From a phage, in sequence record PZ386957.1: 64,000 bases of DNA. One strand, given 5' to 3'. Positions 21,991-42,988 of the stretch are shown one piece after another. A program made the translations under genes and the position numbers. The stretch's first letter is position 1. Each line of letters opens with the position of its first letter. The notes beneath the pieces were generated by a model. The model ran no database searches. It saw nothing but the letters and a program-made list of their open reading frames with translations, and was not told the DNA's origin.

Positions 21991-22809
21991 TTACACGCGA
22001 GCACCGTAGATCGTGCCAACTTTAGTCCATGTTGGGGCATTACCAGTAACAGCTTTACCAGCAGCACCACCAGGCCACGGAACACCAGCGCGACCAGTAC
22101 CATCATACCATGAGTCGTTAGCCTTAGCACCTGCTTGACCAGCGTCACCACCGTTACCAGCATAATATATATTACCGTTATACGATCCTCTACCCGGCGC
22201 GGTATATGTAGCAGCGGTTGACCCTATTTCCATGTTGGAATATGCACCAGCCGCACCATAAGGACGACCACCACCACCACCCATTGACAACCCAATGATC
22301 GGATAATATGAGTAATAAGCACCGCCACCGCCACCGCCACCGCCAGCGATGACACCATTATTTGTGATGCGTAGACGTGTACCGATACCATTATTGATAG
22401 CAGTCCCGCCAGCTTGTCCAGGACCAGTGCTGGAATTAGTACCGCCATCACCACCCTTACCACCACGACCCCAAACATGGACACCTGGGTTAATGTTTAA
22501 TGTAATATACTCATTAGCAAGATCGCTAGGAAAATCGAGACACGGAACACTAGCAGAATGAGAAACAATATCCCCGGTAATGGTAATTACTACCGGAGTA
22601 GACCCGTGTGATCTTAGATAACTAATCAAAGTATCTTTATTGTAACTATGGTTAGACCCAATACTATAATAAACCTCTTTAGAACGTCCCACCATCGCAC
22701 TCATCCAAGCCGGACGACCTAAGCGTACAGCTTCCATTGCGGCACTCATCCACCGTTGGCCTGTTTCATTAACGGCAGATGATCCTACCCATCCAGAAGA
22801 TATTGCCAT
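21991..22809 (-). CDS. Glycine-rich protein (N-terminal globular region + Gly/Tyr-rich low-complexity region)
   Basis: 272 aa; runs GGGGGGGG, GGKGGDGG, MGGGGGRPYGAAG; correct strand and terminator; alt-frame ORFs over it are GC artefacts. Confidence 0.6.
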   Translation of the reverse strand: MAISSGWVGSSAVNETGQRWMSAAMEAVRLGRPAWMSAMVGRSKEVYYSIGSNHSYNKDTLISYLRSHGSTPVVITITGDIVSHSASVPCLDFPSDLANEYITLNINPGVHVWGRGGKGGDGGTNSSTGPGQAGGTAINNGIGTRLRITNNGVIAGGGGGGGGAYYSYYPIIGLSMGGGGGRPYGAAGAYSNMEIGSTAATYTAPGRGSYNGNIYYAGNGGDAGQAGAKANDSWYDGTGRAGVPWPGGAAGKAVTGNAPTWTKVGTIYGARV

Positions 22810-24138: not shown

Positions 24139-24337
24139 TCTTCACGGTCTCCATAATTGTTTTGTAAGCCAGTTTAAGATGATCACCGAAAAACTTTGCG
24201 GTATTACCTTTCGGATCGCGAAGCATTGTTTCTACGATCTCGTCAGCAGTAACAATTTCTCCTTTCTTTGCGGCATGTTCTACCATATACTTCAAAGTTT
24301 CTTCGGAAGCAAGTGCTGCGGCTACTGGATTAATCAT
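24128..24337 (-). CDS. Hypothetical protein
   Basis: 69-aa ORF after promoter/leader 24367-24395. Confidence 0.5.
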   Translation of the reverse strand: MINPVAAALASEETLKYMVEHAAKKGEIVTADEIVETMLRDPKGNTAKFFGDHLKLAYKTIMETVKNAK

Positions 24338-24366
24338 TTTGGTTCTCCTTTGTTGTCGATGTGTGC

Positions 24367-24395
24367 ATTATGCTATACCTTATTCTTGTTGTCAA
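24367..24395 (-). promoter_or_regulatory. Promoter TTGACA-17-CATAAT with GCACACATCGACAAC leader
   Basis: Minus-strand read; downstream of terminator 24401-24431. Confidence 0.65.
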
Positions 24396-24400
24396 CACCT

Positions 24401-24431
24401 AAAAACGAAAAAGCCACCCTTTCGGATGGCT
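24401..24431 (-). terminator. Intrinsic terminator after the 715-aa gene
   Basis: AGCCATCC-GAAA-GGGTGGCT then TTTTTCGTTTTT. Confidence 0.75.
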
Positions 24432-24443
24432 TTTGATTACATT

Positions 24444-26591
24444 TTATTCTCGTCCATTTGTATAGTAGTGTTTGAATCGCCCATAGCCAGTTTCAATAGA
24501 CATATCTTTCTGTCGGACAATCGCCCAATAGCCATTGCATGAATCTTGCAAATACAGATCCTTACCTTTTAGGAACTCGTTAAAGATCGTAATCTGCCAA
24601 TCATAATAGACGGCATCAGCGAGACTATCCATCCAACCATGTGGATCATCCATCAGTTCGACAAGCTCATCGATAACCCAATATGGACACGGGCTAAATT
24701 TACCTTTACTAAAATCATTGAACAAGGTAACAAGTTTAACTTCCGGTCGCGGTTCATCCGGCTGCACAGGTCGTTTATTAACCACAACCTGTACATATTT
24801 CGTATACCCGATGATTTCGCCGGAGTCAAGAGTATCGTTATTGTTCTTATCTGCATAAGCCACAAAACGATAAACACCGGAATCATTTATTGTTGCATTA
24901 GCTTTACGGTAAATCGGCACGCGAGAATCAGCAATAGGTAATTTAACACCAGCTTTGCTAAACTCATAGGTAGGTACATAATCAGCCGGAGGCTTCAACA
25001 TGGTAGCCTCAAGAACAAGCGGTTCACCTTCCGTAATCTGTACCGGATGCGGACCATCAAATTCCATATTAGGCACTACCTCAACATGGTAGGTAGCGCG
25101 TGCTGCAATATCGTAATCGGTATGCGCACTATATGGATCTTTACTCGGACTATCGCGGTATTCATGCGACCAGATACCGTTATGGTCTCGGTCTGCGGAA
25201 TCAGTGATCTTATACTCTTTCGCTTCAATAGGCAAATCTGCGACTTTAACATCATTTTTCAGAATTACTAATGAACGCGTTTGAGTCGGATCACCGCTTG
25301 CTGGCGGTTCTGGATCGACGATCTTAATTACAATCGGTTCACCAATCTCAATATTACGATAATCATATTCTTTATCGTAAATGTCAAGCATACGGCGGTC
25401 ATAGAACAAAGGACGTCCGGTCGGTGTTCTCTGCGGATCATCATCACGCGCGGGAGCCACCAACAGTTGAAGTGCTACGCTATCGTCATATTGCAATTCA
25501 TTAAGCGTAATGCGGTCATATCCCGGATCACCGTATTTCTTGCTTTGGAGTTGCTTACCGCCTAGCATCCACGTAAAGTAAACATTATTTGCAAGCATAC
25601 CATAATGGCGGTTCCATGAGTTATCCGCTGGTAATACTGGCATATCAAAGTTTACTTCCGATCCAGAAGGATAACGAAATTCGATTGCTGCAAAGTCATT
25701 ACGGAAAAATTCGTTTTCCTTAACTTTGACAGTAAATCGGTGTCGCTGCCCTTCAATGAATGATTCACCAGCACCAGGTCCATTAACCACTTTATAGGAG
25801 CGAACGCAAGCTACATATTCACCTGCATCATTTTCGGTAGCATGTTTGGTTGCATAGAGTGTTTTGTTGGTAGACTCATAAACAAGAGTACCGTCGCCAC
25901 GCTCTAAGCGATACCTTACAATGGTATGCTCTGCGTCATTAGGCGCATCATCTTCTACCGTGAAATAAGCTGGTGCATATTTCTGGACATTGAATACTGC
26001 GGGATTTTCCTTAATATCGGCAACAAACGGATAAACAAATTTAACGTCGCCGTGTTCGTCGCTCAATTCCATTCGGTAATTACCGGAAAATTCAGGCCAT
26101 GCAAATTTTGCAATTTTAAATTCACGATGGTCTAATCCCAGATCACCATCAATGGAATCAACGAGGCCATTATTATAATACAGGTCAACCGAAATATTAG
26201 CCGGAATATTACTACGGAAAACAATTTTTGCTTTAATTTCATCACCAATATCAAAAGACGTTGGAGGATGAACATATTCGACAAAGACATTATCGAATAA
26301 ACTAAAGGTAAAGTTTTCCGTGCCGATATCTACGGATTCGCCAGAAAAATTTTCATCATCTTGCGCATAACCACGAAGGTTAACAGACCATCCGGTTTTA
26401 TCCTCTTCTTTCACTGAATCCAATACATAGGAAGGAGTTGCAGTAGTCGCAATGACCTTATTGTCTTTCTTCCACGTAAAACCCTTTTTAGGTTTAGTTG
26501 GTTCAGGGGATTCCCCAGCAAGGGAACAAGCGAAAGTATGAGGAAGCCAAATGGTAGTATTAACGCTAGTATCTTTATTTTCTACTGGCAT
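24444..26591 (-). CDS. Large protein with Ig-like repeat signatures
   Basis: 715 aa; repeated D.G.Y.C motifs (DAGEYVACV, DSGVYRFVA) typical of Ig-like beta-sandwich domains. Confidence 0.6.
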   Translation of the reverse strand: MPVENKDTSVNTTIWLPHTFACSLAGESPEPTKPKKGFTWKKDNKVIATTATPSYVLDSVKEEDKTGWSVNLRGYAQDDENFSGESVDIGTENFTFSLFDNVFVEYVHPPTSFDIGDEIKAKIVFRSNIPANISVDLYYNNGLVDSIDGDLGLDHREFKIAKFAWPEFSGNYRMELSDEHGDVKFVYPFVADIKENPAVFNVQKYAPAYFTVEDDAPNDAEHTIVRYRLERGDGTLVYESTNKTLYATKHATENDAGEYVACVRSYKVVNGPGAGESFIEGQRHRFTVKVKENEFFRNDFAAIEFRYPSGSEVNFDMPVLPADNSWNRHYGMLANNVYFTWMLGGKQLQSKKYGDPGYDRITLNELQYDDSVALQLLVAPARDDDPQRTPTGRPLFYDRRMLDIYDKEYDYRNIEIGEPIVIKIVDPEPPASGDPTQTRSLVILKNDVKVADLPIEAKEYKITDSADRDHNGIWSHEYRDSPSKDPYSAHTDYDIAARATYHVEVVPNMEFDGPHPVQITEGEPLVLEATMLKPPADYVPTYEFSKAGVKLPIADSRVPIYRKANATINDSGVYRFVAYADKNNNDTLDSGEIIGYTKYVQVVVNKRPVQPDEPRPEVKLVTLFNDFSKGKFSPCPYWVIDELVELMDDPHGWMDSLADAVYYDWQITIFNEFLKGKDLYLQDSCNGYWAIVRQKDMSIETGYGRFKHYYTNGRE

Positions 26592-26612
26592 ATTATCCCC
26601 TTATTGCTGACA

Positions 26613-27011
26613 CTAAGCCAGCTTAGTGAGTTTATAGATGGTTTTAAAGCATAGAACTTTAATATCGTCTAAAACGCTCTGTAGAGAGCTATCAACATCA
26701 TTATAAATCTCACTTGCCATTTGCGCTAATTCCTGCAAATAGGCAACTTCGCTAATCTCCTTTCGGACGACCAACGTCGGTTGATATCTTCCGGTAATAC
26801 CGATATTAGTTTCCGTGAAAGTATCAACCAATTCTTGCATTTCAAGATAGAACTCTTCTAGCGCCTTATGTTTTGCGTAAGACCCCGGACCAGTTACCCC
26901 AAAATGCGCAGAATGCATATAAGTAACGCTCATTAGGCATTCACCAATAAAGCGGTCCACATTATTAGCCTTTCCTTCATCGGAAGTTTTTCTAAATTCG
27001 CTGAATTTCAA
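26613..27011 (-). CDS. Hypothetical protein
   Basis: 132-aa ORF. Confidence 0.5.
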   Translation of the reverse strand: MKFSEFRKTSDEGKANNVDRFIGECLMSVTYMHSAHFGVTGPGSYAKHKALEEFYLEMQELVDTFTETNIGITGRYQPTLVVRKEISEVAYLQELAQMASEIYNDVDSSLQSVLDDIKVLCFKTIYKLTKLA

Positions 27012-27301
27012 TTTCGTCGATTCTCCACATTATAAGCAACTACAAATTGCTTCGCAGCATATTCGCCCATCATAAAACATTGTCTTGCATCCATACACCT
27101 ACTACGTGCATATGTTTTCATTAAATGCTCATGAAATTTTTGGCTAGTTTCAACGGATGGTTGGATCTTGCTTATATAGACAATCATCGCACCATCAAAA
27201 TAATCGGTAAAATCACCGACTGGATTATTTTGGTCGGCACTTACACTACCGACTGCCATTAGACAAAATGCTGCGGTTAAAGTTTTACGAATAAATGACA
27301 T
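27008..27301 (-). CDS. Secreted/periplasmic protein with N-terminal signal sequence (rI-like position)
   Basis: 97 aa; N-terminal hydrophobic LTAAFCLMAVGSVSA; sits next to tk where T4 carries rI (97 aa); TATAAATA late-type promoter upstream. Confidence 0.5.
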   Translation of the reverse strand: MSFIRKTLTAAFCLMAVGSVSADQNNPVGDFTDYFDGAMIVYISKIQPSVETSQKFHEHLMKTYARSRCMDARQCFMMGEYAAKQFVVAYNVENRRN

Positions 27302-27334
27302 AAGTCATTCCCCCAGATTAAAAAAGTTCAAGTA

Positions 27335-27342
27335 TATTTATA
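27335..27342 (-). promoter_or_regulatory. T4 late-type promoter TATAAATA
   Basis: Exact TATAAATA on minus strand about 34 nt upstream of the 27301 start. Confidence 0.45.
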
Positions 27343-27363
27343 ATCTAGGGTATATTTTAACCC

Positions 27364-27960
27364 TTATTGGGTAGTACCATCAGTAAAATGTTTACGACAA
27401 ACAGAAACATATTTATCCTCGGCACCGACTTCTATTTGAGCACCATCACGGATAACGTTTCCATCTTTATCAACACGAAGGACCATTGTCGCTTTCTTGC
27501 CACAATGACAGATACCCTTCATTTCGACCAGTTTATCAGCCAATGCCATTAATGCCGCAGATCCTTCAAATAAATTTCCCTGAAAGTCGGTGCGAAGTCC
27601 ATAGCACAAAACAGGGATATTGGCATCATCAACCAGTGCACATAAGCCTAAAACATGTTCTTTAGTCATAAATTGGGCTTCATCCACAAATACAGCATCA
27701 GGACGCCAGCGTTCCGGTCTACGCTTACCTAGTGATTCACGGTACACAAGGTCGAAAAGATCATCAGATTTAGTGAATGTGATCGCTGGAGCACTTAGAC
27801 CAATCCGTGAAACAACTTCACTTTCTGAATCTCGATTATCAATCGCTGGTTTAAGAATTAATACTCGCATATCACGTTCTGTATAGTTATAAGCACTTTG
27901 TAACAGGGAAGTAGACTTACCAGCGTTCATAGATGCATAGTAGAAATATAGTTGCGCCAT
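27364..27960 (-). CDS. tk: Thymidine kinase
   Basis: 198 aa; Walker A MNAGKST; FVDEAQF; CHCGKKA zinc motif; matches T4 Tk throughout. Confidence 0.92.
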   Translation of the reverse strand: MAQLYFYYASMNAGKSTSLLQSAYNYTERDMRVLILKPAIDNRDSESEVVSRIGLSAPAITFTKSDDLFDLVYRESLGKRRPERWRPDAVFVDEAQFMTKEHVLGLCALVDDANIPVLCYGLRTDFQGNLFEGSAALMALADKLVEMKGICHCGKKATMVLRVDKDGNVIRDGAQIEVGAEDKYVSVCRKHFTDGTTQ

Positions 27961-42980: not shown

Positions 42981-42988
42981 TATAAATA
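42981..42988 (+). promoter_or_regulatory. T4 late-type promoter TATAAATA (gene 53)
   Basis: Exact TATAAATA about 24 nt upstream of the gene 53 ATG. Confidence 0.6.

Follow-up and report, generated by a model that had tools for sequence, protein, structure and literature searches.

The stretch of DNA analysed here, a 64,000-nucleotide (nt) window from a phage (sequence record PZ386957.1), carries on its minus strand an open reading frame of 715 codons, ORF715 (24444..26591), which starts with ATG and encodes an acidic protein of 81.5 kDa and pI 4.84 that appears to be a paralogue of the head-decoration protein Hoc. The surrounding 12 kb shares 87-90% identity with JK32, Brandy, SSG23 and RB49-type genomes, placing the window in a Krischvirus (RB49-like) phage. 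Ahead of ORF715 lie tk (27364-27960; Pfam TK, 5.8e-52), the antiholin gene rI (27008..27301, minus strand; Pfam Antiholin, 1.6e-21), whose product has a signal-like N-terminus, and rI.-1 (DUF5856; 26613..27011, minus strand), whose stop codon is 21 nt before the ORF715 ATG; rI and rI.-1 are the first and second cistrons of the unit described below. A Shine-Dalgarno sequence, AAGGGG (26597..26602, minus strand), is found 5 nt ahead of this ATG, and the RNA around it and the start codon has no significant structure (z=-0.56). A preliminary description of the window had noted a 715-residue frame in the rI/tk neighbourhood, after a signal-peptide protein; this was confirmed, the frame being an ATG open reading frame and tk and rI being identified by Pfam. 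Secretion of the ORF715 product itself was considered and rejected, the N-terminus having no hydrophobic segment.

Hoc fibres are the usual example of immunoglobulin (Ig)-like adhesins on phage capsids, where they serve in mucus adherence and virion dispersion, and they are widely used as a display platform. The nearest known relation of ORF715 is the Hoc of T4 and RB49 (PHROG 1149; structures 3SHS, 8T1X and 8T9R), as described in PMC10385173 (Fokine et al. 2023). Judged from sequence, the C-terminal ~180 residues of the protein are homologous to the last Ig-like domain plus the capsid-binding domain of Hoc. PHROG 1149, "Hoc-like head decoration", matches residues 514-698 at E=6.9e-8, and the match runs to the last positions of the profile. 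Furthermore, hhalign of the ORF715 family against a Hoc-only alignment gave a probability of 94.8% (E=5e-8) over residues 517-695, which take in the last Ig-like domain, the linker and the anchor; the 16 members of that alignment were Hocs of T4, RB49, Aeromonas, Shewanella and others, and included no member of the ORF715 family. The family profile, searched against all PDB sequences, found T4 Hoc residues 302-361 (E=0.016), and tblastn of T4 Hoc against the window gave a single notable match, which was the ORF715 C-terminus (E=0.001). The preliminary description had suggested an alignment with Hoc-like proteins, and it is this C-terminal module that bears the suggestion out.

The breadth of the family was assessed by an unbiased, exhaustive hidden Markov model scan covering 1.84 billion representative proteins. 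Only two full-length 50%-identity clusters of the ORF715 family and one fragment were recovered; the other matches were generic Ig repeats and one canonical Hoc of 369 residues (P0045), matched over ORF715 residues 514-668, which hhalign aligned with the family at 93.6% probability (E=2e-7). A word-indexed search with the whole protein returned close family members only; with the C-terminal domains it returned only short Hoc-type proteins and no new architectures, and it supplied an independent profile. Pfam and NCBIfam scans of ORF715 gave nothing for the C-terminal domain, their only signal being a sub-threshold Ig_2 match, and no Pfam family matched the Hoc anchor.

The putative anchor, that is, the domain homologous to the capsid-binding domain of Hoc, comprises residues 631-715 (~85 residues; 24447..24701, minus strand). 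It contains the motifs C635-P-Y-W-V-I-D-E642 and Q682-D-S-C-N-G-Y688, which take the common forms C-x-[WY]-W-V-x-D-E and Q-[DE]-S-x-N-G-Y in the ORF715 family and Hoc. The alignment of the anchor core, from C-[PG]-[YW]-W-V-x-D-E to Q-[DE]-S-x-N-G-[YR], is gapless, with W-V-x-D-E, W, Y and N-G invariant.

The remainder of the protein is predicted to be a string of Ig-like domains. An AlphaFold2 model built from a 16-sequence family alignment had a mean pLDDT (predicted local distance difference test) of 77.9 and was all-beta over residues 1-605, and residues 1-606 parse into six tandem Ig-like beta-sandwich domains. These are the distal domain D1 (residues 1-100; 26292..26591, minus strand) and five more, D2-D6 (residues 101-606; 24774..26291, minus strand), delimited from AlphaFold and Foldseek at approximately 101-194, 195-293, 294-416, 417-507 and 508-606; a Pro-rich linker predicted at low confidence (residues 607-630, containing KRPVQPDEPRPEV; 24702..24773, minus strand) joins D6 to the anchor. 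In Foldseek searches of the PDB ~680 columns were aligned onto proteins with six Ig domains, namely contactin-2 Ig1-6 (E=3e-20) and also neurofascin and sidekick, while among viral models the matches were phage Ig, FN3 and BIG proteins. The signal in the sequence is weak: the Pfam Ig_2 match, the only one, is confined to D1 (residues 19-65), lies under the gathering threshold at 1.2e-4 and is seen in 8 of the 16 family members. The Ig-like domains reported in the preliminary description are upheld by structure prediction, while the D.G.Y.C motifs on which it had relied stand only in part. DAGEYVACV (residues 255-263) and DSGVYRFVAYAD (residues 570-581) are both present and neither is a strict D.G.Y.C; the former reads D.G.Y..C, with a Cys that is not conserved across the family, the latter has no Cys, and D.G.[YW] occurs only twice in the whole protein. 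Domain-against-domain comparison by hhalign detected no sequence similarity among the six domains and no internal repeats; a recent duplication of domains within ORF715 was accordingly rejected.

Many phage Ig-domain proteins are tail proteins, and the gp38 adhesin gene is 1.6 kb downstream of ORF715 on the same strand. It could be supposed that ORF715 encodes a generic Ig-repeat structural or adhesion protein located off the head, in the tail or a fibre, the similarity to Hoc being fortuitous or limited to the last Ig-like domain; a match in a Slopekvirus that is annotated "whisker protein" would also fit. However, the profile matches do not stop at the Ig-like domain but continue through the linker as far as residue 695, where the anchor motif ends, and an alignment of the C-terminus only retrieves only Hoc-type proteins. 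This explanation is considered very unlikely. The identification as a tail or whisker protein was itself rejected as resting on a mis-annotation, the "whisker protein" being found in a fragmented hoc locus beside inh and uvsW. In that locus, from Klebsiella phage vB_KM5a1_KLB15 (L002:3474-4817), three overlapping or adjacent pieces are annotated as "outer capsid protein", "whisker protein" and "hoc large outer capsid protein"; it is probably a frameshifted or mis-called hoc, for which the "whisker" label is misleading.

The relationship of ORF715 to hoc proper is seen from the relatives of the window. In RB49, hoc is located between gene 24 and inh/uvsW. Brandy, SSG23, SFHK24 and JK32 each have, besides the 715-residue gene, a full-length hoc 92% identical to that of RB49. 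ORF715 lies at the tk-rI unit and not at the hoc locus. A tblastn search with T4 Hoc found no canonical hoc inside the 64,000-nt window; from these relatives we infer that the window's own phage has one. ORF715 also fails part of the contact-residue signature of Hoc (see below), and it is best described as a divergent paralogue and not as the hoc orthologue. Phage G2248 has three Hoc-type genes, a canonical hoc of 409 residues, an adjacent one of 846 residues and a copy of the 715-residue family. At its hoc locus (vB_EcoM_G2248) the 846-residue Hoc-like protein, with many Ig-like repeats (L011:482-3022), is encoded directly upstream of the 409-residue hoc (L011:3074-4303) and has a fully canonical anchor, RYVHPIPWRR...GYWVMDEI...LESRNGY; all three genes are annotated as hypothetical.

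In several respects ORF715 resembles the Hocs of T4 and RB49. It has an N-terminal string of Ig-like domains that are variable and an anchor that is conserved, it appears to be dispensable, having been lost in most relatives, and it is acidic, its pI of 4.84 comparing with 4.2-5.2 for known Hocs (PMC10385173) and each of its domains having a pI of 4.7-5.6. It differs from them in having six Ig-like domains instead of three (715 residues against 376-404), in ~10 additional residues inserted ahead of the anchor, in one more strand at the C-terminus (IETGYGRFKHY), and in its position in the tk-rI unit, where it coexists with a canonical hoc. Its anchor is only ~20-25% identical to theirs and is without Y293, H295, R300 and R357, and the ESRNG loop reads DSCNG. 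Other capsid decoration proteins, such as T5 pb10, also display Ig-like domains, borne on a domain that binds the capsid at hexamer centres; the layout of Ig on anchor is like that of ORF715, but no sequence relationship was found and the anchor domains are unrelated.

More than one Hoc-type anchor protein in a phage, including long versions with many Ig-like domains, has precedents besides G2248: Serratia phage Muldoon (1174 and 314 residues) and Enterobacter phage PG7 have two Hoc-like proteins each (PMC10385173), here compared by their published description. The 846-residue Hoc of G2248, unlike ORF715, keeps the canonical anchor. ORF715 forms a separate and narrow lineage, only two 50%-identity clusters having emerged from the 1.84 billion proteins scanned, and occupies a locus different from those of the two-Hoc precedents; the 650 Hoc anchors listed in the supplement to PMC10385173 may already include this family. 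Phages with two Hocs were thus already known, and ORF715 adds to them an unannotated, highly divergent paralogue at another locus. Every GenBank copy of the gene that was examined is labelled "hypothetical protein", and the papers on Brandy/Cognac/Whisky and on SSG23 do not mention it.

Full-length copies of ORF715 are found in only 6 of ~52-64 related phage records, a minority among RB49-like coliphages, and ~90% of sequenced Krischviruses are without an intact gene; metagenomes and read assemblies contributed 15 further clusters at 60-98% identity. From its rarity the gene might be taken for a decaying remnant or a selfish insertion without function. Against this, the reading frame is intact, at 706-718 residues, in the 15 clusters and in the 50%-identity relative, and the ratio of non-synonymous to synonymous substitution (dN/dS) is 0.09-0.15 overall, indicating purifying selection and therefore function, although the ratios are rough because synonymous divergence is saturated (dS above 1). 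The constraint is also domain-specific. The C-terminal domain is the most conserved, with 88% mean pairwise identity, 65% invariant columns and dN/dS of ~0.06, and D1 is the most variable (63%, 18% and 0.18-0.43, respectively). Finally, the genomes without ORF715 keep both ends of the gene, hence they have suffered deletions: the segment 24483..26508 is missing from RB49-type genomes, and Phi1 is without 24636-26508. In the alignments these deletions end on the right at two or more different points. A functionless remnant is accordingly hardly credible.

Pieces of the deleted gene can still be recognised. Phi1 ORF084.1, annotated as a 42-residue "hypothetical protein" (L004:2573-2701), is a C-terminal remnant, and an unannotated 330-nt gap in RB49 (L003:2467-2796) contains an N-terminal one. 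Between the window and Brandy, ORF715 has ~81% nucleotide identity (dS ~1.4) as compared to ~88% in the flanking 12 kb, which suggests faster evolution or exchange of a surface-protein gene.

The expression of ORF715 was considered from the signals around it. A late-type promoter had been noted at 27335-27342 in the preliminary description; the T4-type late promoter box TATAAATA is indeed present there, on the minus strand and 33 nt ahead of the rI start codon, and conservation of ATTATAAATA in front of rI, in the same intergenic place, extends over six loci, namely the window, Brandy, RB49, Phi1 and two related loci (L007 and L010). The box is 743 nt upstream of ORF715, with no convincing terminator in between. 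A strong intrinsic terminator with an 11-bp stem and a T-run (24409..24434, minus strand) begins 10 nt past the ORF715 stop codon, and is followed by a near-consensus sigma-70-type promoter, TTGACA-17-CATAAT (24367..24395, minus strand), that starts the next, separate early unit. L007 has, at the same place after the gene, a terminator of unrelated sequence and a sigma-70 promoter, and the gene order tk, rI, rI.-1, ORF715 is kept even in a 60%-identical member with completely different downstream genes. By this arrangement ORF715 is the last cistron of a conserved putative unit consisting of the late promoter, rI, rI.-1, ORF715 and the terminator.

The leader of rI contains a hairpin (27311..27350, minus strand; -18 kcal/mol, z=-3.9) in which the 5' arm precedes the late promoter box and the 3' arm covers the rI Shine-Dalgarno sequence. 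In the T4 genes e and soc a known arrangement makes only late transcripts translatable; the rI leader hairpin looks like this device for restricting translation to late transcripts, which suggests that the TATAAATA promoter is used. ORF715 could be translatable both from late transcripts and from early read-through, because its own translation start is unstructured. The hairpin is conserved in Brandy, RB49, Phi1 and L010, and L007 has one double change of G-C to A-U. A small hairpin spanning the stop codon of rI.-1 that appeared conserved was discarded, its stability being no greater than that of shuffled sequence.

Late promoter boxes are depleted in the window, with 4 perfect TATAAATA sites against 6.6 expected and 82 one-mismatch sites against 138 expected, every shuffle giving at least 82. 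The perfect copies are at 27335 and 37271 on the minus strand and at 42981 and 54358 on the plus strand; three of the four are correctly oriented, 23-33 nt upstream of a start codon. The terminator and early promoter after ORF715 (window 24334-24419) have a 77%-identical copy in the early region of Brandy (L001:10589-10673), and this cassette appears to be a recurring intergenic module. The gp38 tail-fibre adhesin gene (21991-22809, minus strand; Pfam GP38, 1.6e-70) lies inside the minus-strand, mostly early block and is flanked by terminator-like hairpins at 22845-22830 and 21983-21962, after which comes a perfect sigma-70 consensus promoter at 21946-21919; its route to late expression is not obvious from the sequence.

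These surroundings also allow the protein to be pictured as an early-expressed, intracellular non-virion one, such as a host-takeover or defence-related factor with Ig-like folds. ORF715 is within a minus-strand block of mostly early genes, and there is no terminator between tk and ORF715, so that early read-through probably includes the gene, with its ribosome-binding site unsequestered. On the other side are the homology to the Hoc anchor, the conservation of the late promoter, and the acidic, fibre-like, multi-Ig architecture that is typical of virion surface proteins; nor was there any significant Pfam or NCBIfam match to an enzyme or defence-related family (PADLOC was not searched). An intracellular role is therefore judged highly improbable.

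The most probable explanation, in our view, is that ORF715 encodes a second, long head-decoration fibre of Hoc type, in which six Ig-like domains are carried on a Hoc-type anchor. Under this proposal the gene would be transcribed late, possibly with early read-through from tk in addition, and the protein, since it has no signal peptide, would accumulate in the cytoplasm. Its C-terminal domain would then dock on the expanded gp23* hexamers, and a fibre about twice the length of the three-Ig Hoc would project from the capsid; the variable Ig-like domains may provide weak adhesion to glycans of bacterial or mucosal surfaces, or may modulate virion dispersion. Competition with Hoc at the hexamer centre and binding at a modified site would both be compatible with such a fibre. 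Under laboratory conditions it would be dispensable, and the deletions in most sequenced Krischviruses would fit with this. Late transcription and presence in the virion are here inferred from sequence features. The preliminary reading, of a decoration or adhesion protein that is expressed late, is associated with the virion and has Ig domains, is supported and is sharpened to a divergent Hoc paralogue.

Several observations weigh against a second Hoc-type fibre. Pairwise BLASTP between ORF715 and RB49 Hoc gives no significant match (E=0.12), and in the family-only AlphaFold model the C-terminal domain was of low confidence (pLDDT 30-60). When the C-terminal module (residues 505-715) was refolded with a 39-sequence alignment including short Hocs, the anchor reached a pLDDT of ~76-88; since this alignment contained Hoc homologues, the resemblance to Hoc is partly built in, and the model is supporting evidence and not independent proof. 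The refolded anchor has short strands, three helices and then further strands, with the D-S-C-N-G loop between two of them. The predicted order of elements follows that of the T4 Hoc domain as published, where three helices form a bundle on a four-stranded sheet and the ESRNG loop lies between strands 3 and 4. In Foldseek searches of viral structures with the refolded model, predicted structures of Hoc proteins, among them Acj9 Hoc, CGG4-1 "Hoc I", T2 and 44RR2.8t, rank right after the family's own member and align over ~190-200 columns, covering the Ig-like and the C-terminal domain, as compared to ~100 columns for Ig-only proteins.

A further difficulty lies in the residues with which Hoc contacts the capsid. 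The T4 Hoc contact residues were mapped onto two alignments of the ORF715 anchor with Hocs. The family keeps C307, W310 (W638), D313, E314, Q354, S356, N358, G359 and Y360, and W309 is changed conservatively to Y (Y637). The loop E355-S-R-N-G359 becomes D683-S-C-N-G687, in which S, N and G are unchanged and D is a conservative replacement of E. Other contact or loop residues are altered: Y293 to L, H295 to T, R300 to F, Y304 to K, W306 to S and R357 to C. The first three align with L620, T622 and F627, in an N-terminal part where the alignment is uncertain and MAFFT differs, with a 10-residue insertion. Within the contact set of Y293, H295, R300, W309 and W310, only W310 is retained. At the R357 position all 16 aligned sequences have Cys and the 50%-identity relative (P0016) has Lys, and D313, the partner of R357 in T4 Hoc, is retained as D641. 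Moreover, binding at the hexamer centre would put the ORF715 fibre in competition with Hoc, and with two other Hoc proteins in G2248.

By these alignments the anchor seems to have kept its capsomer-centre side and to have had its beta1-beta2 face remodelled, which leaves room either for competition with Hoc or for different binding. The latter would mean that an anchor derived from Hoc has been retargeted to another lattice position, to vertex-proximal hexamers only, to the neck or tail or to a host structure, where there would be no competition with Hoc. Of the T4 Hoc interface, the beta1-beta2 face and R357 have been exchanged and helix 1 is retained together with the beta3-loop-beta4 hairpin, the replacements are invariant within the family (F627, K629, C635, C685), and a separate site is attractive for G2248, which has two Hocs with canonical anchors as well as the 715-residue protein. 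However, no change is seen in the residues that form the very middle of the capsomer contact (N358, G359, S356, Q354, Y360 and W310), the Hoc anchors of different phages are themselves mutually only 20-30% identical, and no alternative binding site for a Hoc-like domain is known in the Hoc literature. Retargeting is thus unlikely, if still worth weighing. A related and equally doubtful idea is that the remodelled anchor, in which the Y293/H295/R300 face is lost and the invariant pair Cys635/Cys685 might stand in for the R357-D313 salt bridge that shapes the binding loop, recognises a capsid site or a subset of capsomers other than that of canonical Hoc, and that two fibre types, or three in G2248, are carried without competing; if this were so, carriers would show a patterned, multi-length adhesive coat of distinct fibre types at once.

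If ORF715 does encode a second Hoc-type fibre, the GenBank copies labelled "hypothetical protein" could become "Hoc-like head decoration protein". The divergent anchor would widen the sequence space that binds, or possibly re-targets, the gp23 hexamer, and would be useful for orthogonal capsid display. The presence and absence of the gene in near-isogenic RB49-like phages (Brandy, JK32 and SSG23 as against Cognac, Whisky and RB49) provides a ready comparison, which could show what a long fibre contributes to host range, adsorption, mucus adherence and survival in the gut.

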